From Thermoplasmata archaeon (GTDB taxonomy: Archaea; Thermoplasmatota; Thermoplasmata; Sysuiplasmatales; Sysuiplasmataceae): 64,000 nucleotides of DNA. The notes beneath the pieces are model-generated. The model worked only from the letters and a program-made list of their open reading frames with translations, ran no database searches and had not been told where the DNA came from. The stretch lies in contig JAJZXY010000001.1 in assembly GCA_021806165.1 (NCBI GenBank), forward strand, positions 12,836 to 76,835. Reading direction: 5' to 3'. Each line of letters starts with the position of its first letter. Within the stretch, counting starts at the first letter, position 1. The position numbers were made by a program, and so were the translations under genes. This document shows, piece after piece, positions 2,856 through 61,460 of this stretch.

Positions 2856-4319
2856 ATGAATACGATTGTGGTGGTCACAGACAGCCTGCGCGCGGACTAC
2901 CTGTCCTGCTACGGAAACAGCTGGATCAGTGCGGAGAGCATTGAGAAGTTCAGCAGGAAGGCGACTAAAATCACTCATGCCTACCCGGAGGGGCTGGCCA
3001 CCATTCCCGTAAGGACGGCGCTGCTGACCGGGCGGTATACTCTGCCGTTCAGGGGTTGGCAGGGACTTGAGCGTACGGACGTCCTCCTTCCAGAACTCCT
3101 CTGGGGAAAGGGAATACGCACAGCGCTGATATCGGACACCTACCACATGCACAAGCCCGGGATGGGCTTCGACCGTGGATTCGACGAGGTCAGGTGGATC
3201 AGGGGGCAGGAGTCGGACATGTTCGAGACTGGGGAAGTCCCTGCAGCGGACATAGGCAGGTTTGACAAGCCGCACCCCTCAGACCCCTCGCACGGCAGGC
3301 GGCTGGAGCAGTATTTCAAGAACATATCACGTTTCGACTGGAAGGATGAGAAGGAACATTTCGTTGCCCAGGTTTCGAGCGAGGCTGTCAGGTGGATTGA
3401 TGAGGAGTCGGACAAGGGAGACTTCTTCCTCTGGGTTGACAGTTTCGACCCGCATGAGCCTTGGGATCCGCCCGAGCCGTACTGGAGCATGTATGAGCAT
3501 GTCAAGGGAACTGCAGACGTCATCTCTCCCGTCTACGGCCCGGTTGACGGCTATCTGAGTGAGGATGAGCTTCAGCGCGTGAAATCACTCTACGCAGGAG
3601 AAATCACCATGGTCGACAAGTGGATCGGGAAGATATTCGACGCGATAGAGAGGAAGGGGCTGATGTCGGATACCATGGTCGTCTACCTGTCGGATCACGG
3701 TGAACCTCTGGGGGAGCATGGAATGGTTATGAAGGCAAGGCCATGGCCGTACGAGGAGTTGATTAGAATACCGCTGCTTGTTCACCATCCTGATGGCCCG
3801 ATGGACGGGAGGAGTGTAAAGGGAATGGTGCAGACATGCGATCTGATGCCCACAGTCCTCGACTTCTTTGGAATACCCGGCAAGCTTTCCGCAAACGGCG
3901 AGTCCCAGCCCCCGACACACGGTGAAAGCATGCTCCCGCTCCTTAGCGGAGAGAGCGAAACACTGAGGGATTATGCACTCAGCGGCTACTACAGGAAGTC
4001 ATGGTCAGTTACGGACGGCAGCTGGAAGTATGTCACCTATCTCGAGGAGGAGGCTACAAGGTACCTCGCATGCGACATAACGGAGCGCATGTCGTCTTCA
4101 GGGCGTGATGCAGTTGTCGACCACAGGCGCCCGGAGCTGTACAACCTTGCTGAAGACCCCGGGGAGAATGACAACCTGCTGATCAGGGGCGGCGGCAGTG
4201 CAGCCACCGTCGGCGACAGTCTCGAGCTCGTAATGAGACGCATGGTAGACTCCCTCCAGGCGTACGACAGGGCAGGAACCCCTCCCCATTTCGATTTCCT
4301 GGGCAGACTCATTCAGTGA
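2856..4319 (+). CDS. sulfatase-family (alkaline phosphatase superfamily) protein with Thr at the formylglycine position
   Basis: It shows the sulfatase fold signatures NTIVVVTDSLRAD, LLTGRY and LSDHGEPLGEHG. The canonical C/S-x-P-x-R motif reads T-I-P-V-R (about nt 3000-3014). The ATG at 2856 is preferred over the TTG at 2826 in the track. Confidence 0.7.
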   Translation: MNTIVVVTDSLRADYLSCYGNSWISAESIEKFSRKATKITHAYPEGLATIPVRTALLTGRYTLPFRGWQGLERTDVLLPELLWGKGIRTALISDTYHMHKPGMGFDRGFDEVRWIRGQESDMFETGEVPAADIGRFDKPHPSDPSHGRRLEQYFKNISRFDWKDEKEHFVAQVSSEAVRWIDEESDKGDFFLWVDSFDPHEPWDPPEPYWSMYEHVKGTADVISPVYGPVDGYLSEDELQRVKSLYAGEITMVDKWIGKIFDAIERKGLMSDTMVVYLSDHGEPLGEHGMVMKARPWPYEELIRIPLLVHHPDGPMDGRSVKGMVQTCDLMPTVLDFFGIPGKLSANGESQPPTHGESMLPLLSGESETLRDYALSGYYRKSWSVTDGSWKYVTYLEEEATRYLACDITERMSSSGRDAVVDHRRPELYNLAEDPGENDNLLIRGGGSAATVGDSLELVMRRMVDSLQAYDRAGTPPHFDFLGRLIQ

Positions 4320-6359: not shown

Positions 6360-7988
6360 TTGAACATGACCATAAATGAAAACACTTCGGTAGAGCAGCT
6401 AGGAAAGCTTTTCCAGATATCGCTTCCCGCTGACAGGACGTCCGAATGGGCGAACATAATAAGGGAGGTTGTTCCGGGCAGCATCGTGATTCAGGGCGCC
6501 AACGTTTCCATTGCTTCTGACATAGCCGGATTCGCATGGCGAATACGCTCCATATGCCTGGACGCAGGCATCACCCGGGAGAGATTCCCGCTGATAGGCA
6601 TCACGCAGGAGGGCGGCTGGATCAGCAGGGTCACGGATATTGCAAACAGCCCCGGCAACATGGCACTCGGGGCGGCAGGCAGCGTCACCTCGACCTACGC
6701 CTCCTACCGCGCCATGGCCGAGGAGCTTAGGTCGCTTGGCATAGACTGGGACCTCGCCCCGGTTGTGGATGTGAATACGGAGCCGTCAAACCCTATAATA
6801 GGTGTCAGGTCCTTCGGTGACGATCCGAAGGCGGTATCAGCCCACTCGCTCGCGGCACTCGACGGCCTTGAGGACGGCGGACTGCTTTCGTGCGTGAAGC
6901 ACTTTCCGGGTCACGGGGCGACCAGCTCCGATTCGCACATCACCCTTCCGCGGCTTGATCTGTCCCTTGAAGAACTTGAGCGGTGCGACCTCCTTCCGTA
7001 CAGGGAGAGCATCAGACGGGGCTCAGATTCGATCATGATATCCCATGTTGCATTCCCGGCCATCGAGGGAAGGGGAAGGCTGCTTCCCGCCACCCTGTCG
7101 AAGAAGATCACAACGGGCCTGCTGCGGGAAAGGCTTGGCTATGACGGCCTCGTTGTAACGGATTCCCTCTCAATGTCAGCGGTAGCAGACAATTTCCCGG
7201 CTGAGTCTGTTCCAGTTTCAGCAATCGATGCGGGTGCAGACATACTCGAATGCGCCTCTCCTGAGATGTATATGGTGATGTTTCACTCCCTCCGCAGCGC
7301 AGTTGCGTCCGGAAGGGTGGGAGGTGAAAGGATAGCAAGGAGCATCCGGCGCTTTGACGACCTGAGGCGCACGCATGCAGCCCTGGGAAGGCGAAAGAGA
7401 GGCACAGCCAGATGGAGCAGGCAGGCGCGATACAGCGCAACGCGCGCCTCATTAGTTTCATCGGTAACCCTTGTGGGCAGGAGGATTCGCATGCCTCTTC
7501 TGAAAGGATGCGAGGCAGTGCATTCATTCTATTTCAGCAGGTCGGCAATGCTGGAGGACAGGGGTATCACCGAGGGCAGCAGCCCCCTGTCTCAGATATT
7601 CCGCGAATGGGGATTTACAGGGGGGCGCCACTTTACCGCTCCCAGGAACATTTCCTCCGCGCAGGCAGGGGAGATGTCGCAGCTCGCAGCGGCCCATGCG
7701 GGCAAGAATGATTTCCTGGTGGTGTTCACAAACGACGCACTCGCGTCAAAGCAGACAAAGGGGCGGCGCCCTCAGATAGATTTCACAATGCAGATTCATG
7801 AACTGATGGAGGGGAGGGTAGCGGCCGTGGGCACAGGCACACCATATGAGGCAGAGCTGCTGAAAGGTATCCCGTATGTCTGCGCCTACAGTTTCAGGAA
7901 GGAGGCGCTGTCTGCAGCCGTCGGAGTCCTTGCAGGCGGAATGGCTGCACAGGGGCGGCTGCCTGTGAAGATGCAGGGTGTACAGTGA
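6360..7988 (+). CDS. glycoside hydrolase family 3 beta-N-acetylhexosaminidase (NagZ-like) with C-terminal extension
   Basis: It carries the GH3 N-terminal domain motifs KHFPGHGATSSDSH and GLVVTDSLSM, plus PVVDVNTEPSNPIIGVRSFG. No signal peptide is present. Confidence 0.7.
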   Translation: MNMTINENTSVEQLGKLFQISLPADRTSEWANIIREVVPGSIVIQGANVSIASDIAGFAWRIRSICLDAGITRERFPLIGITQEGGWISRVTDIANSPGNMALGAAGSVTSTYASYRAMAEELRSLGIDWDLAPVVDVNTEPSNPIIGVRSFGDDPKAVSAHSLAALDGLEDGGLLSCVKHFPGHGATSSDSHITLPRLDLSLEELERCDLLPYRESIRRGSDSIMISHVAFPAIEGRGRLLPATLSKKITTGLLRERLGYDGLVVTDSLSMSAVADNFPAESVPVSAIDAGADILECASPEMYMVMFHSLRSAVASGRVGGERIARSIRRFDDLRRTHAALGRRKRGTARWSRQARYSATRASLVSSVTLVGRRIRMPLLKGCEAVHSFYFSRSAMLEDRGITEGSSPLSQIFREWGFTGGRHFTAPRNISSAQAGEMSQLAAAHAGKNDFLVVFTNDALASKQTKGRRPQIDFTMQIHELMEGRVAAVGTGTPYEAELLKGIPYVCAYSFRKEALSAAVGVLAGGMAAQGRLPVKMQGVQ

Positions 7989-40024: not shown

Positions 40025-40420
40025 TCAATCCCCCGATTCGAACTTGTCAGGGAGGAGAGATTCAACCTTCACCCTGACAGGCCTGCCATCCCTTTCTATT
40101 ATGACAGATGCACCGGGCCCGTAGTCGCTCAGGAGCTCCCTGCACATACCGCATGGCGAAACCACATGCACATCCTGGGGTGCTCCATCCTCCCCCGGCG
40201 AAATCACGGCCACGATTGTGTCTACCATGTCCCTGCTCCTGCTCCCCATCTCCCCTATGGCCACCGCCTCGGCGCAGAGCGCTATCCTTGCCACGTTTGC
40301 CTCGACATGCACTGCAGTTTACACAACCCCGCCGTTGCTCAGGAGGGCCACACCCAACTGGTGTCTGTCCTTGAGGTACATACTGCCTATGACCGCGCGT
40401 ACCTCAGAAACAGGTCTCAT
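40025..40420 (-). pseudogene. cdd: cytidine deaminase gene interrupted by a single in-frame TAA
   Basis: The minus-strand translation is MRPVSEVRAVIGSMYLKDRHQLGVALLSNGGVV*TAVHVEANVARIALCAEAVAIG...VSPCGMCRELL...ESLLPDKF. It is a collinear Cdd with the CAE and PCGxCRE zinc motifs. The TAA (about 40319-40321) sits where Cdd has a conserved aromatic (Tyr/Phe) residue. The downstream 95-aa ORF starts at GTG. Confidence 0.6.
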
Positions 40421-40529
40421 GTCGCCTTTGCCAAGTTCTGCCCGCATAACATCCGCTGGCAGGTAGGCAACTGCAGGTGTTAAACTATGCCGAAGTGAAA
40501 TGCGGGTAAGAGCCGACTGTGCAGGCTTC

Positions 40530-40545
40530 GCATACGTTTATTAGG
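40530..40545 (+). promoter_or_regulatory. candidate TATA box upstream of kdpF
   Basis: acgtTTATTAgg lies about 37 bp upstream of the kdpF ATG and resembles the element upstream of the tRNA-Leu gene (gTTTATTAtg). Confidence 0.3.
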
Positions 40546-40578
40546 GGGCTCCGACTCATTCGGCGCGCGAGGATAGAG

Positions 40579-40671
40579 ATGCTGCCCGCCGGTTACATCG
40601 TGGTGGCTGTCTTCGTAGCAGCCATGCTCGGTTACCTCACTTACGCCTTACTGCGCATAGAGCAGTTCTAG
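40579..40671 (+). CDS. kdpF: potassium-transporting ATPase subunit F (KdpF), 30 aa
   Basis: This ORF is absent from the track. MLPAGYIVVAVFVAAMLGYLTYALLRIEQF is a single TM helix with the KdpF-like GYL.YAL...E.F ending. It lies immediately upstream of kdpA. Confidence 0.6.
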   Translation: MLPAGYIVVAVFVAAMLGYLTYALLRIEQF

Positions 40672-40686
40672 GGAGCAACGCAAGCG

Positions 40687-42375
40687 ATGGAGTTCATCGA
40701 ATTCGCTCAAATGGCATTCCTGGTCGTTGTAATACTTGTGGTGTCCTATTATCTTGGCATATACATGGGACGCATCTACCTTGGGAAGAGATCGTTCCTG
40801 GACAGGTATTTCGGCCCTCTCGAAAACGGCCTCTACAGGCTCATGGGCATAAACCCGAGGCACGAGATGGACTGGAAGGAATATCTGAAGGCGTTCCTCC
40901 TGACAAATGCGGCGCTTGGCATCATCGCCTTTCTTGTTCTCTTTTTCCAGCAGTCCCTTCCACTCAATCCGGACCACGTGGGCTCCCTACCCCCTCTACT
41001 GGATTTTGCCACAGCCGCGTCCTTTCTGACAAACACTAACCTGCAGCACTACACGGGCGAGCTGCAGCTCAGCTACTTCTCACAGATGGGTGCCATCACA
41101 TTCCTCATGTTCACATCCGCAGCCGCGGGCATAGTTGTTGCAGTGGCCATGATAAGGGGGATAGTGAACCAGAACGGCACGCTCGGGAACTTCTACAGGG
41201 ATTTCACAATAACCATCACAAGGGTGCTGCTACCGATAAGCATCGTCGAGGCGCTGATATTCGTCTACCTTGGAATACCGCAGACATATCAGGGGGCAGT
41301 TGTCGCGCACACCATCAACATGGGGGCGCAGACCATATTCAGGGGACCCGTGGCCAGCCTTGAGGCGATAAAATTCCTGGGAACCAACGGCGGTGGCTTC
41401 TACGGTGCCGATTCCGCCTACCCGTTTGAGAACCCGACCGCCCTCAGTGCCTACCTCCAGCTCATAACGGAGGCATCCATCCCCTTCGGGCTAATCTTCT
41501 CCTACGGCCACATGGTGAGGAATCCAAGGCAGGCGCGAATGCTCGTCACCGTCACGATGGGCCTCTTCCTCGTCGGGCTCGCAATTGCCCTCTTTGCCGA
41601 ATCAGGCCCCAACGCCCTGCTGCACGGCCTGCCTATAAACCAGGTGGCAGGAAACTGGGCAGGGAAGGAGAGCCGCTTTTCGGTGGCAGAGTCCACATTC
41701 AGCCTGATACTCAACACCTACACCCAGACAGGGGCGCCGATGGTGGCTCTGAACCAGATGAGCCCTCTTTCGGTTGCCAGCGCCATGTTTGGAATGGAGG
41801 TCCAGGGCTCTCCCGGGGGCGCCGGCACAGGGCTGATGAACCTTCTTGTCTACGTCGTACTTGCAGTCTTCATCTCGGGTCTCATGGTCGGCAGGACCCC
41901 CGAGTTCCTGGGCAAGAAGATATCGACCGGTGTAATGAAGTATTCAGTTATTTTCATAATGATACATCCAATAATAATATTGGCTCCCGTCGCCATCTCC
42001 GTCATGTCCGGTTTTGCATCCCTCTCCTCGCTGCCGCCCAACGAGGCTTTCACGGCCCTCCTCTATGAGTTCACAAGTGCGGCTGCCAACAACGGCTCAT
42101 CCTTCGGCTACCTGCTCACGCAGCAGAACACAAGCTTCTTTCTTGCCATGGAGTCCATCGTGATGCTGACAGGCAGATTCGCGCCAATAACCCTTGCACT
42201 TGCAATCGCGGGCGTCATGTCTTCGACAAAGCCGCTCACCCAGACGAAGTCACTTGCGGTCATGGATGACCCCATATTCGCCGTCTTCCTCTTCCTGTTC
42301 ATAATAGTGCTGAGCGCCCTTCTCTTCCTTCCCGTTCTTGCGCTGGGGCCGCTTGCCGGCTACCTGGGGGGATAG
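40687..42375 (+). CDS. kdpA: potassium-transporting ATPase subunit A (KdpA)
   Basis: The full-length KdpA pattern is present (N-terminal MEFIEFAQMAFLVVVILVVSYYLG, selectivity-filter-like TNGGGF and NNGS segments). Confidence 0.95.
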   Translation: MEFIEFAQMAFLVVVILVVSYYLGIYMGRIYLGKRSFLDRYFGPLENGLYRLMGINPRHEMDWKEYLKAFLLTNAALGIIAFLVLFFQQSLPLNPDHVGSLPPLLDFATAASFLTNTNLQHYTGELQLSYFSQMGAITFLMFTSAAAGIVVAVAMIRGIVNQNGTLGNFYRDFTITITRVLLPISIVEALIFVYLGIPQTYQGAVVAHTINMGAQTIFRGPVASLEAIKFLGTNGGGFYGADSAYPFENPTALSAYLQLITEASIPFGLIFSYGHMVRNPRQARMLVTVTMGLFLVGLAIALFAESGPNALLHGLPINQVAGNWAGKESRFSVAESTFSLILNTYTQTGAPMVALNQMSPLSVASAMFGMEVQGSPGGAGTGLMNLLVYVVLAVFISGLMVGRTPEFLGKKISTGVMKYSVIFIMIHPIIILAPVAISVMSGFASLSSLPPNEAFTALLYEFTSAAANNGSSFGYLLTQQNTSFFLAMESIVMLTGRFAPITLALAIAGVMSSTKPLTQTKSLAVMDDPIFAVFLFLFIIVLSALLFLPVLALGPLAGYLGG

Positions 42376-42376
42376 G

Positions 42377-44407
42377 ATGCTCAGCGAGGCAAAGAAGCAG
42401 GCAAGGAGGTACAGGCGCATCGCGGTCATAGGGTCGTTCACAGGATTCCTGCCCACCAGGGCTGCGCGCAATCCGGTGATGTTCGTAGTATACCTGAGCA
42501 CCGTGCTCATGGGACTTGTCACACTTCTTCCATGGCTCTTCGGGGGCATGCTTGGAGGCTACAACTTCGACTTCTACCTTGAAATAACAGTCATCCTCCT
42601 CCTTACACTGTGGTTCGCCAATTTCTCAGAGGCGCTTGCTGACGCCCAGGGAAAGGCCAACGCCGAATCGCTCAAGGGCCTCCGTTCGGAGACTGAGGCA
42701 AGGAGGATTGATTCGGAAGGGGCTGCGCGCACCGTCATGAGCAGCGAGCTGCGGAAGGGTGACCTCATCCTGCTGAAGGAGGGGGACACAGTCCCCATCG
42801 ACAGCCAGGTCGTCGAGGGGGCGGTCGTCGTAAACGAATCCATGATGACAGGCGAATCTGAACCGCAGGTGAAGGAGACGGGCGGGGACAAGGACTCTGT
42901 ACTCGGCGGGACAATCATACTCTCGGGCGAGGCGAAGGCCCGCGTCAGCAATGATCCAGGCGCCACCTTCCTTGACCAGATGATCAACCTGGTGGAAGGC
43001 GCCAACAGGCAGAAGACGCAGAATGAAATCGCTCTCACACAGCTTCTGATCACACTGAGCATCGTGCTTATAGTGGTGATCACGACGCTCATTCCAATAT
43101 CCGGTTTCTTCAGGTTTGCAGTTGACATAGGTGCGCTCGTCGCCCTGCTCATATGCCTCCTGCCGACTACCATAGGTGCACTCCTCCCCTCGATCAGGAT
43201 TGCAGGTGTAAACCGCGTTGTCAGATACAATGTCATTGCAAAGAGCGGGAAGGCGGTGGAGACCGCCGGTGACCTCGATGTCCTACTGCTTGACAAGACC
43301 GGGACAATAACGATGGGCAACAGGGTTGCCACCAGGATCATTCCTGCCAGGGGCAAGGATGAGAAGGAGGTGCTCCTGACTGCATACATCTCCTCAGCAC
43401 TCGATACCACACCAGAGGGTGTGTCGACAATGCGGCTGGCATATGCCAGGGGCGCCAGGCTCGACAAGCAGGTCATTTCCGAGCTTAAGCCTGTGAAGTT
43501 CACTGCAGAAACCAGGATGAGCGGCTCGGACATGCCCGACGGGACGAGTGTGAGGAAGGGCTCCGTCGAGGCGATGGAGCGCGCAGGCACATCAGTGCCT
43601 GAGGACATAAGGCGAAAGGTTCATGACGCCTCAATGGAAGGCTCAACCCCTCTCCTCCTGACAAAGAACGGGGAGATAGAGGGGCTGATAGTCCTGCAGG
43701 ATATAGTGAAACCGGGTATTGATGCGAGGATCGCCGAGCTGAAGAACATGGGCATCAGGACCATCATGGTCACGGGTGACAATTTCCTGACCGCGCAGAG
43801 CATTGCCAAGAAGGTGGGGGTCGACGAATTCAGGGCGGAGGCGACCCCGAAGGACAAGATGGAGATAATAGCAAGGGAGCAGTCGAAGAACCACCTGATA
43901 GCCATGACCGGTGACGGCTCGAATGACGCTCCCGCCCTTGCACAGGCGGATGTGGGTCTTGCAATGAACTCGGGAACGGCTGTCGCCAAGGATGCTGCAA
44001 ACATGGTGGACCTCGACTCCGATCCCACCAAGCTCATCGAAGTCGTTGCACTCGGCAAGCAGCTCCTGATCACACGCGGCGCGCTGACCACCTTCAGCAT
44101 CACGAACGACGTAGCGAAGTATTTTGCAATCATACCGGCAATGTTCTCCTCCCTCCTCCCGTCCCTCGACGTCCTCAATATACTGCAGATTTACCCTGCG
44201 CCGCTTGCAGTCCTCTCGACTCTGGTGTTCAATGCAATAATCATACCGCTGCTCATTCCGGTTGCAATGAGGGGAGTGCGCTTCCAGGCAACCGATGCAC
44301 CCACGCTGCTGAGGAGGAACATGCTCCTCTACGGCCTGGGCGGCCTCCTCTCCGCGTTCATAGGTATAAAGCTCATAGCAATGTTTCTGGGGTTGTTCTA
44401 TGTCTGA
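42377..44407 (+). CDS. kdpB: potassium-transporting ATPase subunit B (KdpB, P-type ATPase)
   Basis: P-type motifs DKTGTIT, MTGDGSNDAPALAQADVGLAM and TGES are present. The start is set at the ATG 1 nt after the kdpA stop; the track ORF starts earlier inside kdpA. Confidence 0.95.
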   Translation: MLSEAKKQARRYRRIAVIGSFTGFLPTRAARNPVMFVVYLSTVLMGLVTLLPWLFGGMLGGYNFDFYLEITVILLLTLWFANFSEALADAQGKANAESLKGLRSETEARRIDSEGAARTVMSSELRKGDLILLKEGDTVPIDSQVVEGAVVVNESMMTGESEPQVKETGGDKDSVLGGTIILSGEAKARVSNDPGATFLDQMINLVEGANRQKTQNEIALTQLLITLSIVLIVVITTLIPISGFFRFAVDIGALVALLICLLPTTIGALLPSIRIAGVNRVVRYNVIAKSGKAVETAGDLDVLLLDKTGTITMGNRVATRIIPARGKDEKEVLLTAYISSALDTTPEGVSTMRLAYARGARLDKQVISELKPVKFTAETRMSGSDMPDGTSVRKGSVEAMERAGTSVPEDIRRKVHDASMEGSTPLLLTKNGEIEGLIVLQDIVKPGIDARIAELKNMGIRTIMVTGDNFLTAQSIAKKVGVDEFRAEATPKDKMEIIAREQSKNHLIAMTGDGSNDAPALAQADVGLAMNSGTAVAKDAANMVDLDSDPTKLIEVVALGKQLLITRGALTTFSITNDVAKYFAIIPAMFSSLLPSLDVLNILQIYPAPLAVLSTLVFNAIIIPLLIPVAMRGVRFQATDAPTLLRRNMLLYGLGGLLSAFIGIKLIAMFLGLFYV

Positions 44408-45011
44408 CAGGGAGGAACGTGTGCCGCACCTGCGCGCAGTCGCTGTAATGTCAATTGTGTTTTTCGCGCTGCTCGGTTTCGCCTACCCGGGCTTCGTGGC
44501 CGTTGTCTCGCACGGCATAGGACTTGGATACCAGGCCAACGGAAGCCTGATCAGCCAGAACGGGACGGTCATAGCGTCAAAGTTCATAGGTGAGAACTTT
44601 TCAGCCCCCTACTACTTCTGGCCGCGCGTCTCATCGGTGAACTACAACAGCAGCAACGGATCCGGCGGGGAGGCTATTGGCATAATGACGCAGCAGTTCT
44701 ACAATGAGACAAGGAACTACACGCTCTACCTCCTCAGCACCGGTCATGTTCCCAACGGCACATACGTGCCGGGGAATGGCGTCGAACCCTCAGGATCAGG
44801 TTTTGACCCCGACATCTCACTTGGCTTTGCCAGGTTCCAGCTTCCGCGTGTCGCCTACTACTCCCACCTCAACCTCACACTGCTCGAGAAGCTGGTGGAG
44901 AAGTACACAACATACCCTTACCTGGGCTTCATAGGAAGCACCTATGTTAACGTGGTTCAGCTGGACATAGCGCTCCACGGCATACTCGTGGGCAACGGGA
45001 CGATCAGCTGA
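44400..45011 (+). CDS. kdpC: potassium-transporting ATPase subunit C (KdpC)
   Basis: It has an N-terminal TM followed by the KdpC core (ANGSLISQNGTVIASKFIGENF...YFWPRVS). It overlaps the kdpB end by 8 nt and contains several N-x-S/T sequons. Confidence 0.85.
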   Translation: MSDREERVPHLRAVAVMSIVFFALLGFAYPGFVAVVSHGIGLGYQANGSLISQNGTVIASKFIGENFSAPYYFWPRVSSVNYNSSNGSGGEAIGIMTQQFYNETRNYTLYLLSTGHVPNGTYVPGNGVEPSGSGFDPDISLGFARFQLPRVAYYSHLNLTLLEKLVEKYTTYPYLGFIGSTYVNVVQLDIALHGILVGNGTIS

Positions 45012-45072
45012 CAGGGGGTGGCATTTGCCGCGTTAAGTTGAATAATCATGAAACTGTAATGTTACCTGTTCT

Positions 45073-45930
45073 ATGAAGGAAACTGCAGAGCAGTCACAGG
45101 TTCGCGATCCGCCCGACAGGCATGACGGAAGGCTGAAGTTCCAGAAGATACTGGTTCCGACAGACTCCAGGGAGACGGCCGAGCTCACCATTCCGCTCGC
45201 CAAGCGGCTCCTCTATGCCGGGGGGGAGATAGTGACTCTCAACATAATCGACACCACTTTCCCGCTTGAGGTCATCGACAAGTGGAAGAAGAGCACAAGG
45301 ATATCGATAGCAGCGGTGGAGGCGGGCTACAGGCACGAGGTGACTGTGACACCCGAGGTGAAGAATGCACGCTCAATCGTCAACTGCATTCTGGAGGAGA
45401 TATCCATCCGGGACATAGGGCTTCTCATGTTTGTAATCAATCCACACGAGGGAAAGAGGAGCTTCAGGTTCGGGAGCAAGACAAGGAGCCTTGCGCGCAG
45501 CGCAACCTGCAGCGTCCTGATGCTCAACAAGCTGACGCTCGGCATGCATCGCAGGCCGGGGGGAAAGATGCTCGTTGCGATAAAGGGCGACGACGAGGGG
45601 AGGGAGGTTCTCAGCCTCGCGAAGACGCTCTCGGACGAGCTCGGCGGCCTGCCGATAATACAGTACAGGATGCCGGACGGCAAGAAGGTGAGGAAGAGGG
45701 CCGAGGGCCAGCAGGGGGCTGGAGAGTACAGGACGTTTGCCAAGGTCTACTACGGGAGCAAGGTGGCAGACGCGATACTCGGCGAGCTGGCGAAGGACAG
45801 GTACTCACTGGTCCTCATATCGTCCAACATATCCAGGTCAGCCCTCCCATTCTATTCCGGCGGTGCGTTCGAGTTCCTTATGAAGAACGCTCCATGCCCC
45901 GTGATGATATACAGGAAGGTCGTCAGCTGA
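45073..45930 (+). CDS. tandem universal stress protein (two UspA domains), KdpQ-like accessory gene of the kdp operon
   Basis: It has two USP-like halves (FQKILVPTDSRETAE...; KMLVAIKGDDEGREV...ISSNISRS...) and sits directly downstream of kdpC on the same strand. Confidence 0.7.
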   Translation: MKETAEQSQVRDPPDRHDGRLKFQKILVPTDSRETAELTIPLAKRLLYAGGEIVTLNIIDTTFPLEVIDKWKKSTRISIAAVEAGYRHEVTVTPEVKNARSIVNCILEEISIRDIGLLMFVINPHEGKRSFRFGSKTRSLARSATCSVLMLNKLTLGMHRRPGGKMLVAIKGDDEGREVLSLAKTLSDELGGLPIIQYRMPDGKKVRKRAEGQQGAGEYRTFAKVYYGSKVADAILGELAKDRYSLVLISSNISRSALPFYSGGAFEFLMKNAPCPVMIYRKVVS

Positions 45931-47524
45931 AGGCCCGCGACAGCGCATCGTCGACGGAGTAGACAAGCTTCCCTCCTACAACGGTGGCGGCCACGCCGGG
46001 CGGGGTTGTCATTCCGGTCGAGGGCGTACCTGCAAGGAAGACCATGTCTGCCGCCGCACCAGGCTCGAGCATTCCAAGCACACCCTCCTCGCCGTCTGCA
46101 GCCGCGGCAGCGGAGGTGTACATTTTCAGTGCATCGTCAAGTCCCACTGCCTCTCCCCCGGTCAGGCCTGCCATCGGTGACCCGTCGTGCCCTCCCCTGT
46201 CCATGGCGGCAATTATGCCCGTCCACGGGTCAAGGGGCTCGACGGGCGCGTCGCTGGAGCCGGCCAACACAAGGCCGTCCTCAAGCATGGAGAGGAACAT
46301 GTAGCAGTCCCTGCACCTTTCACCGAGCCTTGCAGGCAGCCACCAGTCGCTGACAAGGAAATGCGGCTGCACAACAATTACAGGTCTCTGGCCCCTGAGC
46401 ATTTCCCTGACAGGACCGGGAGTCAGAGCAGCGTGCTCCAGCCTGAATCCCGTAACGCCGGGTCCCGCCGCCCTTGCGCTCCTGAGGGCCGCCATCACAC
46501 CTTCATCTCCAATCGCATGCACTGCAGCCTGCAGGCCACTCTCCGCCGCCTTCCTGATCAGCGCCTCCATTTCCTTCTCCTCCGTCAGGCGAAGGCCGCG
46601 TGTATCCATGTCGCTGTAGGATGAGGAGAGGAGAGCGGTCCGCGCACCGAATGCCCCGTCGGCAAAAAGCTTGATGCCGCATATGCGCACCATCCCGCCT
46701 TTTTCCCCGCGTTCCATCCTTCCCGCACCTGACTCGAATGCTTCCCTGGACAGGAAGAATCTCACCCTGCACCTGAGCAGTCCCTCCCTCTCAAGTGCCT
46801 TCACCGCCCTTATCTCGTCAATGTCGGCATTGACGGCCGTCAGAGTTGTGAGTCCTCGCGTCACTGCATAGTCGGCGGCCGCCTTCACCGCGCTTCCGAT
46901 CAGCGGCCGCACCAGCTTCTCCTCAAGCGGCGCAATGTGCAGCTTCACGGCGTTGTCGTAGAAGAGTCCGTCCGGATTCCCGGCATCATCCCTGCCAATC
47001 ATGCCCCCGGGCGGATCCGGCGTCCCTGCATCCACGCCGGCCATTTCCAGCACCCTGGAATTGACCACCGCCACATGAGTGCAGAACCTGTAGAGTATCA
47101 TAGGGCGGTGCGCTTCCGCCCTGTCAAGATCTGCTGCCGAAGGGTATCTGCGCTCCTTGAAGAGCTCCTGGTCCCAGCCGGACGAAACGGCGAAACCATG
47201 CTCTGCAGCCATGGCCGCACCCCTTCCTGCCATTTCCGAAATGCTGCCGCTCCCCCTCAGGTCATGTGAGATGATGCCAAGCCCGGTGGCGGAGAGGTGC
47301 ATGTGCGCATCTATCAGCCCGGGGATTACAGGCCCGCCGCTGTATTCCACCCTGCGCGGGCAGCTGAACCTCTTCTCGGCCTCACCGGCGTCTCCCGCAA
47401 AGAGTATCTTACCCCCGCCTGCAACGACAGCACCAACCTCCCTGGTGCCAGTCATAATCCTCCCTGCGACCAGCAGGTCCGCCCCGATGCCCCCTGGCTT
47501 CGATTCAGTACCTGTCATACTCAA
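45923..47524 (-). CDS. amidohydrolase family protein (metal-dependent amidohydrolase 3)
   Basis: LLVAGRIMTG...PGLIDAHMHL is the metal-binding HxH region, and the protein is a large amidohydrolase-3-type. Confidence 0.75.
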   Translation of the reverse strand: MSMTGTESKPGGIGADLLVAGRIMTGTREVGAVVAGGGKILFAGDAGEAEKRFSCPRRVEYSGGPVIPGLIDAHMHLSATGLGIISHDLRGSGSISEMAGRGAAMAAEHGFAVSSGWDQELFKERRYPSAADLDRAEAHRPMILYRFCTHVAVVNSRVLEMAGVDAGTPDPPGGMIGRDDAGNPDGLFYDNAVKLHIAPLEEKLVRPLIGSAVKAAADYAVTRGLTTLTAVNADIDEIRAVKALEREGLLRCRVRFFLSREAFESGAGRMERGEKGGMVRICGIKLFADGAFGARTALLSSSYSDMDTRGLRLTEEKEMEALIRKAAESGLQAAVHAIGDEGVMAALRSARAAGPGVTGFRLEHAALTPGPVREMLRGQRPVIVVQPHFLVSDWWLPARLGERCRDCYMFLSMLEDGLVLAGSSDAPVEPLDPWTGIIAAMDRGGHDGSPMAGLTGGEAVGLDDALKMYTSAAAAADGEEGVLGMLEPGAAADMVFLAGTPSTGMTTPPGVAATVVGGKLVYSVDDALSRAFS

Positions 47525-52193: not shown

Positions 52194-53153
52194 TCACTGC
52201 CTGCCGCTCTGTGCCGACTTCAGTGCTGTCACAGTCTTCATCACGGTGCGCAGCATCTCGCTGCGCACAGGCTCCTCGTACTGCGACTCGGACTGGATGT
52301 CTATGCTTATCACATAACCGGAGGCCGTTGTTTCGGAGACGAGCACCACGGGCTCGGTCCCGGGCATGACTTCCTTCAGCCTGGCTATATCCCTGACGAC
52401 AGCATCTATCACGACGGCCGGGTCCAGACTCCTGTCAACCTCGTACTTGGCCCTGACCTTCATCCTCCCTCTTCTCGAATTTACGAGTATGAGCGCCTGG
52501 ATGAATATGCCGGCTGGAACCTTGATCAGCCTTCCATCGTCCATAACCATGTCCACGTAGAGGAAGCCGACGTAGTCGACCGTGCCTGTGAAGCCGCTGA
52601 CAAGGAAGTCGCTGGAATAGAACTTGGGCGGGTAGGAAGGGGCAAGCACGCCGAACTGCCACGTTGAGAATGTGATGCGCTCCCCTGCAGACACGGGCCT
52701 TGCGAGCACAAGGACAAGCCCGGCGAAGAAGTTGGCCAGCACCGTCTGCGATGCGAGCCCGAGCACAATGGCCGTGAAGGCGCTTCCGACGATGAGTCCC
52801 TGGAGGTCAAGGTGGAGTGTTCCGAAGACAGCGAAGGCCAGGACCAGGTAGGCAATCAGCGTAAACGAGTATTTTATCGGCACTGCCTTGGCCATGCCTA
52901 TCCTCGGCACCAGCACATCCATTATCACCCGTCCAAGCAGGGTGATGAGTGCATATCCTGCTGCAAGCACCACGACGGCGACTATGGTGGACTGGTAGCT
53001 GACAAGCTGAGTCGAGTACTGCTTCAGTATGAAATCATTGAGAATCAGGTTGAAGGCGTAGAGCAGCGCAGCAACGACAAGCACCATGAGCGCCACACCC
53101 CCAAGAGTGTGCCTCCTCCCTCCGCGAGCAGATCCATCGTCCGCCATGTCCAT
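52194..53153 (-). CDS. mechanosensitive ion channel (MscS family)
   Basis: Three N-terminal TM helices are followed by the MscS beta-domain (GERITFSTWQFGVL..., VDYVGFLYVDMVMDDGRLIKVPAG). Confidence 0.8.
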   Translation of the reverse strand: MDMADDGSARGGRRHTLGGVALMVLVVAALLYAFNLILNDFILKQYSTQLVSYQSTIVAVVVLAAGYALITLLGRVIMDVLVPRIGMAKAVPIKYSFTLIAYLVLAFAVFGTLHLDLQGLIVGSAFTAIVLGLASQTVLANFFAGLVLVLARPVSAGERITFSTWQFGVLAPSYPPKFYSSDFLVSGFTGTVDYVGFLYVDMVMDDGRLIKVPAGIFIQALILVNSRRGRMKVRAKYEVDRSLDPAVVIDAVVRDIARLKEVMPGTEPVVLVSETTASGYVISIDIQSESQYEEPVRSEMLRTVMKTVTALKSAQSGRQ

Positions 53154-61362: not shown

Positions 61363-61460
61363 GCGGGAGTAGCTAAGCTCGGCCAACAGCGCAGGACTTA
61401 AGATACGATTGAGAAATTCTGTCCCGCAGGGGTCCGTGGGTTCGAATCCCTCCTCCCGCA
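61363..61460 (+). tRNA. tRNA-Leu (anticodon UAA) with a 13-nt intron between positions 37 and 38
   Basis: Folded by hand. The acceptor is GCGGGAG/CTCCCGC (7/7 pairs). The D-arm is GCTA...CAGC with a GG loop. The anticodon stem is CAGGA/TTCTG (one G-U) and the loop is CTTAAG|A, anticodon TAA at about 61399-61401. The intron is ATACGATTGAGAA (about 61403-61415). The long variable arm CCC-GCAG-GGG marks a class II tRNA. The T-arm GTGGG-TTCGAAT-CCCTC has the GGTTCGAATCC consensus. The discriminator is A and CCA is not encoded. Confidence 0.8.

Follow-up and report, generated by a model that had tools for sequence, protein, structure and literature searches.

The region between positions 40,579 and 45,930 of the window, the whole 64-kb stretch of DNA that was analysed, holds the full set of genes for KdpFABC, a K+ uptake pump of high affinity that is driven by ATP. 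Directly downstream lies a gene for a tandem universal stress protein (USP), which is evolutionarily locked to kdpC across Thermoplasmata and other Thermoplasmatota in the seven loci read. On balance, we favour the reading that this is a KdpFABC pump with a Kdp-dedicated tandem-USP regulator, acting by protein–protein contact and with no KdpD/KdpE relay. The regulatory role of the USP is what we infer from the comparisons set out below; the functional replacement of KdpDE implied in the initial annotation goes beyond them.

Organization of the kdp Operon

Five open reading frames lie head to tail on the plus strand between 40,579 and 45,930, in the order kdpF, kdpA, kdpB, kdpC and the USP gene. 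The initial annotation had called the operon kdpFABC, and all four subunit genes were identified in that order. KdpA, the channel-like K+-translocating subunit (562 aa; 40,687–42,375, plus strand), matches Pfam PF03814 (E 2.7e-179, 597 bits) and TIGR00680 (498 bits against a cut-off of 388). KdpB, the P-type ATPase subunit, matches TIGR01497 (829 bits against a cut-off of 528), and the catalytic motifs DKTGT, TGES, TGDN and GDGSNDAP are all visible in its translation. The open frame of kdpB begins with a TTG at 42,338; the start common to relatives is the ATG at 42,377, where their KdpB alignments begin with a 1-nt kdpA–kdpB gap, and from which the product has 676 aa (42,377–44,407, plus strand). 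KdpC (203 aa; 44,400–45,011, plus strand) consists of one N-terminal helix and a soluble domain. It is recognized by PF02669 (E 4.6e-42, 144 bits against a cut-off of 24), falls under the cut-offs of the NCBIfam equivalog models (122.5 against 152.6) and is 32% identical to E. coli KdpC. The intergenic distances are 15 nt (kdpF–kdpA), 1 nt (kdpA–kdpB) and −8 nt (kdpC overlaps the kdpB stop by 8 nt), tight enough for kdpFABC to form one transcription unit. A spacer of 61 nt separates kdpC from the USP gene (285 aa; 45,073–45,930, plus strand), whose final 8 nt are shared with a convergent amidohydrolase gene.

The first gene, kdpF (40,579–40,671, plus strand), encodes the single-helix subunit MLPAGYIVVAVFVAAMLGYLTYALLRIEQF of 30 aa. 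Profiling of this peptide with HMMs, as proposed in the initial annotation, did find KdpF matches, but all of them below cut-off: the NCBIfam KdpF models give only sub-threshold matches (E 4e-4 to 6e-3), and TIGR02115 scores 17.2 bits against a cut-off of 26.85. Comparison with relatives and with E. coli nonetheless establishes a genuine mini-gene. An equivalent 30-aa frame lies just 5′ of kdpA in all six related loci that cover the region, with 63–93% identity (L008 was left out, as its sequence ends before the kdpF region), and the nucleotide differences pile up on the third codon position (for instance, 2/2/9 and 2/4/15). When E. coli KdpF was compared with the window by tblastn, kdpF was the sole match (46% identity over 28 aa, E 0.002). 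The mini-gene had been described as missed by gene calling; it is real but not new, since a gene of 30 aa that faintly matches the KdpF family of Pfam is already among the gene calls of L004.

KdpC carries ten N-X-S/T sequons, which take up 10 of its 13 Asn residues. Shuffling of the sequence gives an expectation of 1.8 ± 1.3, none of 2000 shuffles reached 10, and the density of 4.9 sequons per 100 aa compares with at most 0.6 in neighbouring proteins. The enrichment pointed out in the initial annotation is thus confirmed, although two or three of the sequons are family motifs also found in E. coli KdpC. The extracellular, sequon-rich domain is probably N-glycosylated, and its enrichment in sequons makes KdpC a clean candidate for a transporter subunit that is N-glycosylated in an archaeon.

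Linkage of the Tandem USP to kdpC

Relatives of the USP lie directly 3′ of kdpC in all seven loci read (P0009, P0012, P0015, P0016, P0017, P0018 and P0021), at protein identities of about 20–62%, so that the link between USP and kdp put forward in the initial annotation is borne out by conserved synteny. The synteny sample was seeded by USP homologues and covers kdp operons with a USP rather than every kdp operon of Thermoplasmatota. The genes that flank the kdp–USP cluster vary from locus to locus. Because all seven relatives adjoin kdpC while their other neighbours differ, the USP can be regarded as a Kdp-linked accessory gene. The gap between kdpC and the USP gene is 3–76 nt in relatives, and the gaps of 3–14 nt in the more distant lineages indicate co-transcription there. 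All named members of the USP cluster are Thermoplasmata or Thermoplasmatota proteins from MAGs, and public records label the proteins of the family only “universal stress protein.” In a search of 1.8 billion proteins, full-length matches with E below about 1e-18 were Kdp-linked in every case examined, and a third homology search with an extended alignment brought no further family members. Outside Kdp, the nearest relatives are tandem USP modules that are fused to an APC amino-acid permease (P0023, P0160, P0061 and P0118) or, in P0025, encoded beside one.

By its predicted fold, the gene product is a free-standing, cytoplasmic tandem USP of the UspE/Rv2623 class. Domain 1 spans about residues 20–152 (nt 45,130–45,528) and domain 2 about residues 165–281 (nt 45,565–45,915). 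The N-terminal half is above the Pfam cut-off for Usp (PF00582, residues 23–151), whereas the C-terminal half scores 19.6 bits against a cut-off of 24; the two UspA domains of the initial annotation are correct by predicted structure. The AlphaFold2 model (pLDDT 76.7, pTM 0.79) contains two alpha/beta domains, with low-confidence loops at residues 128–132 and 204–215. Its top Foldseek matches in the PDB are full-length tandem USPs (4R2K, 3OLQ, 3CIS, 3LOQ, 5CB0 and 3AB7; E 4e-10 to 1e-7), and its structural neighbours also include TeaD, from the TeaABC transporter, and the C-terminal regulatory domains found in cation-chloride cotransporters.

None of the 16 Kdp-linked family members has the canonical ATP motif G-x2-G-x9-G-[ST] in either domain, while the same expression recovered the motif in control tandem USPs; its only remnant is the final G-S in domain 1 (FRFGSKT). 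No Walker A motif is present in any Kdp-linked member. The c-di-AMP motif SxS-x20-FTAxY, defined for S. aureus KdpD (PMC4686210), has no match in the family, also with a relaxed pattern. Residues that the family does conserve include W71 and the FRFGSKTR loop. The possibility that the USP is a fragment of KdpD was considered and rejected, as it has no similarity to E. coli KdpD (tblastn; USP-family HMM 0.1 bits). It has no match to PF02702, the N-terminal domain of KdpD, and no specific similarity to the USP domain of that protein.

Candidate Promoter Elements and Transcription

A TATA-like box, TTTATTA (40,537–40,543, plus strand), was read from the sequence 36 nt 5′ of the kdpF ATG. TTTATTA or TTTAATTA occurs at this place in five of six aligned lineages, among them L004, whose KdpA is 68% identical. 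Between the box and the kdpF start lies a conserved element, GACTCATTCG (40,553–40,562, plus strand), a candidate operator or initiation-region element that in the window sits within a small inverted repeat, CCGA-CTCAT-TCGG. Its core, ACTCATTCG, is invariant in the window, L006, L007, L009 and L004, and the flanking bases diverge. A role of GACTCATTCG as a regulon-wide motif was rejected, given one exact match in the window and five at no more than one mismatch, against 3.9 expected.

The spacer between kdpC and the USP gene holds a second conserved TATA-like motif and candidate internal promoter, GTTAAGTTGAATAATCA (45,032–45,048, plus strand), which ends 24 nt 5′ of the USP ATG. It occurs once in the window, is conserved in the window, L006, L007 and L009, and is recognizable as TAAATTGAATTA in L001 at an equal distance from the ATG. 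Genome-wide, an A+T peak and TATA-like words are found at −40 to −25 from ATG starts. With this motif in its 61-nt spacer, the USP gene may also have its own promoter in this lineage. Independent transcription of the USP, which the initial annotation had listed as an argument against its own proposal, is to judge by the spacer a live possibility. No terminator was found between kdpC and the USP gene in a scan for bacterial-type promoters and terminators, whose models are uninformative for an archaeon. Rfam returned no c-di-AMP riboswitch or other known RNA element between 40,300 and 45,200 (E up to 1), and one tRNA only for the whole window at the gathering threshold.

Possible Modes of Action of the USP

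In the mechanism that we favour, the kdp operon would be driven by an archaeal TATA-type promoter, and an archaeal regulator would act at the conserved element GACTCATTCG. Expression of the USP in this lineage would probably have two sources, read-through from kdpC and a promoter of its own in the spacer. A KdpD/KdpE-type kinase relay would take no part; instead, the tandem USP would work by protein–protein contact and not by phosphotransfer or DNA binding. Its most likely action, purely by conjecture, would be to dock on the cytoplasmic part of KdpB and tune the activity of the pump, the role ascribed to USP modules that are fused to other transporters or lie beside them. Several observations count against this mechanism: the spacer motif suggests that the USP can be transcribed alone, its C-terminal domain is sub-threshold and its model has low-confidence loops. 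In addition, KdpQ of Halobacterium, the one studied analogue, is reported to act on transcription and not on the pump (PMC8303175).

The last point leads to the alternative that survives best, in which the USP resembles KdpQ and raises kdp transcription (positive autoregulation) through a DNA-binding partner, leaving the pump untouched; we regard it as possible but doubtful. On pNRC200, the annotation places kdpF, kdpA, kdpB and kdpC in this order and after them VNG_RS11195, a “universal stress protein” of 272 aa; PMC8303175 names this gene kdpQ and ascribes to its product a positive autoregulation of Kdp. Order, length and two-USP architecture match between kdpFABCQ and the window, and the kdpF promoter contains a conserved operator-like element. 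By hhalign, the Thermoplasmatota and KdpQ families are colinear over both domains (98.4%, E 4.6e-15, 247 columns), a result that any pair of tandem USP families would be expected to give. Conversely, the USP has no DNA-binding domain, and its closest relatives outside Kdp are attached to transporters and not to transcription factors. The two families are also not mutual closest relatives by HMMs in both directions: with the window-family HMM, the KdpQ family scores 14–27 bits (H. salinarum KdpQ, 22) against 40–55 for generic tandem USPs and ranks behind about 160 other sequences, and with the KdpQ HMM, the window USP scores 12.9 bits and generic tandem USPs as high or higher. A shared mechanism can thus not be assumed from orthology. 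BLASTP matches KdpQ and the window USP over 63 aa (E 2e-4). Judged by these scores, the window USP is not demonstrably an orthologue of KdpQ and is no closer to it than to other tandem USPs. The resemblance to kdpFABCQ noted in the initial annotation holds for gene order and tandem-USP architecture, but specific sequence relatedness to KdpQ is not seen in the HMM scores. Searches aimed at finding KdpQ by similarity (USP by tblastn against PLSDB plasmids) gave chance-level matches only, and a KdpC search against plasmids gave bacterial records only; KdpQ was located by reading pNRC200 directly.

It is also conceivable that the USP is a neighbour of kdp and nothing more, a general stress protein transcribed from its own promoter and without a specific part in K+ uptake. 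There are many USP genes, often uncharacterized, the records use only the general name, and the 61-nt spacer has its conserved TATA-like motif at a position typical of the genome. Nevertheless, adjacency to kdpC persists in all seven loci from about 80% down to about 20–28% protein identity while the surrounding genes change, the distant lineages have kdpC gaps of 3–14 nt, and the clade with E below about 1e-18 is Kdp-linked in every case examined, which makes this reading improbable.

The initial annotation stated that no sensor kinase or response regulator is present, and this holds for the 64-kb window, in which neither a histidine kinase nor a response regulator was found and tblastn searches with E. 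coli KdpD and KdpE had no match below E 0.5. Nor do the gene calls of ten related loci, read over 12–21 kb around the operon, include a KdpD or KdpE. Two-component systems are very scarce in Thermoplasmata genomes, which also counts against a KdpDE pair elsewhere. A significant fraction of Archaea are without any form of KdpD (Silberberg et al., 2024, PMC11018627). Control from elsewhere in a genome searched over 64 kb, through a KdpD/KdpE pair or a short KdpD serine kinase, with the USP as an auxiliary as UspC is for E. coli KdpD, has a parallel in Nitrosotalea devanaterra, where kdpD adjoins kdpABC (PMC4836417), but in view of these results it is hardly to be expected.

Implications for Kdp Control in Archaea

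K+ uptake underlies the inside-positive membrane potential of acidophiles, so the regulation of the Kdp pump is physiologically central. The host here is an acid-loving Thermoplasmata archaeon. To our knowledge, the only studied archaeal case of Kdp control without KdpD/KdpE is Halobacterium KdpQ. The Thermoplasmatota loci provide a second, sequence-distinct tandem USP family linked to kdpC, and with it a comparative handle on KdpDE-free control through conserved USP residues, promoter elements and transporter-fused relatives. A bolder generalization, which we put forward as speculation and think rather unlikely, is that tandem USPs are a dedicated kinase-free Kdp control subunit that acts on KdpB in KdpD-less archaea and that was recruited to kdpC at least twice independently (Halobacteria KdpQ and Thermoplasmatota) from transporter-docking USP modules. 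If this were true, and with the USP domain of bacterial KdpD taken into account, the sensing partner that recurs with Kdp in both domains of life would be the USP fold rather than the histidine kinase.

Comparison With Known Systems

The closest counterpart in layout is kdpFABCQ of H. salinarum, which has the same order on one strand (kdpF, kdpA, kdpB, kdpC and a tandem USP), a USP of similar kind (272 aa against 285 aa in the window, both without the canonical ATP motif) and, as in the window, no adjacent kdpDE. The two differ in that kdpQ overlaps the kdpC stop by 1 nt, whereas the window has a 61-nt spacer with a promoter-like motif. The H. salinarum operon is plasmid-borne (pNRC200/pHS3) in an extreme halophile of neutral pH, whereas that of the window lies in a chromosome-like context in a Thermoplasmata archaeon of acid environments. 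Because kdpFABC with a tandem USP is already known from Halobacterium, the Thermoplasmatota case is a modest extension and not a new type of system.

E. coli K-12 (kdpFABC–kdpDE) has homologues of all four pump subunits, encoded in the same order, and a USP-fold module is associated with both systems. In E. coli, however, the USP is one domain within the 894-aa sensor kinase KdpD, which is followed by KdpE, whereas the window lacks the N-terminal kinase domain of KdpD, its transmembrane/GAF/histidine kinase part and any response regulator. The c-di-AMP-regulated short KdpD, made of KdpD-N and Usp only (e.g., in Deinococcus geothermalis), is like the window USP in being soluble, containing USP, lacking a kinase relay and being encoded with kdp (Silberberg et al., 2024, PMC11018627); the window USP differs in having two USP domains and no KdpD-N, Walker A or SxS-x20-FTAxY.

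USP-fold proteins encoded with a membrane transporter are also known from TeaD of TeaABC (PDB 3HGM) and from Rv2623 with the ABC transporter Rv1747. In the APC-permease-fused tandem USPs and the C-terminal domains of cation-chloride cotransporters, the USP fold is joined to the transporter itself. All of these share with the window USP its fold and the pairing of a USP module with a membrane transporter. TeaD and Rv2623 bind ATP through the canonical motif that is absent from the window USP. Finally, the partner of the window USP is a P-type ATPase complex, whereas those of TeaD, Rv2623 and the permease type are secondary or ABC transporters.

Pump genes and operon organization

The locus is a complete Kdp pump operon together with a tandem universal stress protein (USP) gene that is evolutionarily tied to the pump. 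Five consecutive + strand open reading frames fill positions 40579–45930 of the window: kdpF, kdpA, kdpB, kdpC and, at 45073–45930, the gene for a 285-aa USP. The products of kdpA (40687–42375, +), kdpB (42377–44407, +) and kdpC (44400–45011, +) all match Pfam and NCBIfam models, the first two above the equivalog cut-off and KdpC above the Pfam cut-off. The open frame of kdpB starts at a TTG at 42338, the alignment of relatives begins at the ATG at 42377, and KdpB carries the P-type ATPase motifs DKTGT, TGES, TGDN and GDGSNDAP. Gaps of 15 nt (kdpF–kdpA), 1 nt (kdpA–kdpB) and −8 nt (kdpB–kdpC) give the packing that would be expected for a single transcript.

The initial annotation had proposed kdpF (40579–40671, +; 30 codons within a longer GTG-started frame) as an overlooked gene before kdpA, and the proposal holds. 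KdpF HMM matches to the 30-aa ORF are all sub-threshold. Each of the six related loci that span this region has the ORF just 5′ of kdpA (63–93% identity), nucleotide differences between loci fall mainly at third codon positions, and the sole match of E. coli KdpF (annotated K-12 record) in the window is the kdpF site, at 46% identity. These three independent lines establish kdpF as a real gene. It is a correct catch but not a discovery, as it is already called in at least one relative: the gene calls of L004, a related locus in another genome, contain a gene of 30 aa that weakly matches the KdpF model of Pfam.

The N-glycosylation sequons that had been noted in the extracytoplasmic domain of KdpC are likewise substantiated. 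Ten of its 13 asparagines lie within N-X-S/T, against 1.8 ± 1.3 in shuffled sequences (none of 2000 as high as 10); sequons are about 10 times as dense as in neighbouring proteins, and most positions are retained in relatives. Part of this signal is inherited, since four sequons are present in E. coli KdpC too, two or more of them in conserved family motifs (QANGS and QNFT); the excess beyond these motifs is real. In KdpFABC structures the KdpC soluble domain faces the periplasm, and the enrichment fits an extracytoplasmic topology in a wall-less acidophile.

The Kdp-linked USP family

Pfam recognizes one Usp domain in the USP (residues 23–151), and the C-terminal half alone scores 19.6 bits against a cut-off of 24. 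AlphaFold2, run with 14 family members, predicts two beta-alpha-beta domains with a short helix between them (pLDDT 76.7, pTM 0.79). The PDB entries that match this model best are tandem USPs over their full length (UspE/YdaA, Rv2623, Archaeoglobus 3LOQ and TTHA0350); next come the C-terminal domains of cation-chloride cotransporters, which resemble tandem USPs. The predicted fold and these matches therefore bear out the two UspA domains of the initial annotation and the label “tandem USP,” with the second half sub-threshold in Pfam. The ATP motif G-x2-G-x9-G[ST] is found in neither domain, and the USP contains neither a Walker A motif nor SxS-x20-FTAxY, which binds c-di-AMP in S. aureus KdpD (PMC4686210). 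Trp71 (45283–45285) is invariant in the Kdp-linked USPs of Thermoplasmatota (16/16), and its aligned counterpart in the family of KdpQ, the Kdp-associated USP of Halobacterium salinarum, is the likewise invariant Trp58. The loop FR[FL]GSK[TS]R (residues 131–138; 45463–45486), conserved in the Sysuiplasmataceae-type subfamily only, resembles the LFGRKTD loop in KdpQ domain 2. Both may be interaction or ligand sites.

In a one-genome-per-species scan, the USP is found in Thermoplasmata MAGs only, including Candidatus Sysuiplasmataceae and Ca. Sysuiplasma superficiale. A word-indexed search recovers 14 homologues, and a full HMM search across 1.8 billion representative sequences gives few distant full-length relatives (E 1e-29 to 1e-18), beyond which scores drop to the generic-USP level. 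One entry, P0198, is identical to the window USP and is encoded on a contig of 225,708 bp; JBJKPR01, JAKAPY01 and JAGVSJ01 are further candidate carriers of the locus. Named members of the clusters are all Thermoplasmata or Thermoplasmatota archaea, annotated just as “universal stress protein.” Genomic context was examined for seven relatives ranging from ~62% to ~20–28% identity (P0009, P0012, P0015, P0016, P0017, P0018 and P0021). In 7/7, the USP gene directly succeeds kdpC in the same orientation, 3–76 nt apart from it; this sample began from USP homologues and so gives no measure of Thermoplasmatota kdp operons without a USP. Genes flanking the kdp–USP block vary by locus (for example amidohydrolase, purM, TP-methylase, PP2C phosphatase and ABC transporter genes). 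In the next clade out, the gene for P0025 adjoins an amino-acid permease gene, and P0023, P0160, P0061 and P0118 are permease–tandem-USP fusions. Given this permease linkage and the constant kdpC synteny, the Kdp-linked USPs form a distinct clade from within the transporter-associated tandem USPs.

One soil Thermoplasmata contig (L018) has a 40-aa ORF without family match called between kdpC and the USP (3295–3417). In one distant relative, from a Thermoplasmatota MAG (GCA_027379155.1, locus L014), a PP2C-type Ser/Thr phosphatase gene (6817–7467) follows the Kdp-linked USP by 15 nt. Serine phosphorylation switches bacterial KdpB off. This gene is of interest for that reason and because PMC7693658 reports that a Sulfolobus USP stimulates a PP2A phosphatase.

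Candidate promoter and transcription signals

Two elements upstream of kdpF are conserved across relatives, a TTTATTA box (40537–40543) and GACTCATTCG (40553–40562); both are kept even at ~68% protein identity, whereas flanking bases are not. Lying between the TATA box and the start codon, GACTCATTCG would suit a repressor site or an initiation-region element, and elsewhere in the window it is not repeated above chance. A further motif, GTTAAGTTGAATAATCA (45032–45048), stands out by conservation in the 61-nt kdpC–USP spacer: it is conserved in close relatives and recognizable in the related locus L001, at the same 23–24 nt from the USP ATG. In 31 long ORFs of the window that begin with ATG, both A+T content and the frequency of TATA-like words are highest at −40 to −25 relative to the start codon, so GTTAAGTTGAATAATCA sits at the usual promoter position in the host genome, pointing to a putative leaderless or short-leader USP transcript. 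No oligo-T or hairpin terminator is found between kdpC and the USP gene. In our reading, the Sysuiplasmataceae USP would be expressed by read-through plus an internal promoter, and in distant lineages with a kdpC–USP gap of 3–14 nt it would be a plain operon member. The USP gene and a convergent amidohydrolase gene (45923–47524, −) share 8 nt at their 3′ ends (45923–45930), which leaves no room for a terminator between the two.

Regulators and flanking genes

The absence of a sensor kinase and response regulator, as first claimed, stands within the 64-kb window, where E. coli KdpD and KdpE as queries find nothing (best E 0.5). In the stretches inspected around the kdp operon of related loci, no kinase or receiver genes are called. 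Many archaea are entirely without KdpD (PMC11018627), although some ammonia-oxidizing archaea possess it (PMC4836417). The neighbours of kdp in the window have metabolic or housekeeping roles: thiolase, OYE-type flavoprotein oxidoreductase and CoA-transferase genes upstream, and amidohydrolase, purM, HAD hydrolase, FtsJ-type methyltransferase and tRNA-guanine transglycosylase genes downstream of the USP.

Three other features were observed. An MscS-type mechanosensitive channel gene (52194–53153, −; PF00924, E 5e-8) lies downstream of the kdp cluster at a distance of about 6 kb; it is another osmotic-homeostasis gene, with no sign of linkage to kdp. Divergent from kdpF, a cytidine/deoxycytidylate deaminase-like gene (40025–40447, −; PF00383, E 2e-9) is broken by an in-frame TAA at 40319–40321; related loci L006 and L007 have an unbroken orthologue at the same position, in which that codon specifies His or Phe. 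The interruption reflects either recent pseudogene formation or a mistake in the assembly. An Rfam tRNA of 98 nt (61363–61460, +; 39.5 bits) is unreported by ARAGORN in default mode, and its extra length suggests an archaeal intron-containing tRNA.

Comparison with Halobacterium kdpFABCQ

The likeness to the Halobacterium layout, noted in the initial annotation, is confirmed by the pNRC200 annotation, in which kdpF, kdpA, kdpB and kdpC are followed by a 272-aa universal stress protein (VNG_RS11195), and by papers on kdpQ. PMC8303175 gives this locus the name kdpQ and describes it as a positive autoregulator of Kdp, PMC7002104 mentions the kdpFABCQ cluster, and PMC4299497 recounts mapped operator and BRE-TATA elements of the H. 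salinarum kdp promoter. The arrangements differ in that kdpQ overlaps kdpC by one base, whereas a 61-nt spacer separates kdpC from the USP gene in the window.

We infer that the USP regulates Kdp specifically and does so without kinase chemistry. The main alternative to direct action on the pump is a KdpQ-style effect on transcription; the USP has no DNA-binding part, however, and the proteins closest to it are physically joined to transporters. Direct contact of the USP with the pump is favoured on both grounds.

The comparisons do not bear out orthology of the USP and KdpQ. BLASTP aligns only 63 residues (E 2e-4, pairwise). Profile–profile alignment of the two families is colinear and significant, but this is also true of tandem USPs generally, and HMM scoring in both directions places many unrelated tandem USPs ahead of either family. 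The nearest neighbours of KdpQ among the sequences compared are the tandem USPs P0045 and P0047, then transporter-linked USPs including P0026, P0030 and P0023. The two Kdp-linked families have either diverged very far from each other or come from two separate placements of a tandem USP behind kdpC. The locus adds a new member, at family level, to a layout known from Halobacterium; it is not a new kind of system, and it merits modest follow-up.
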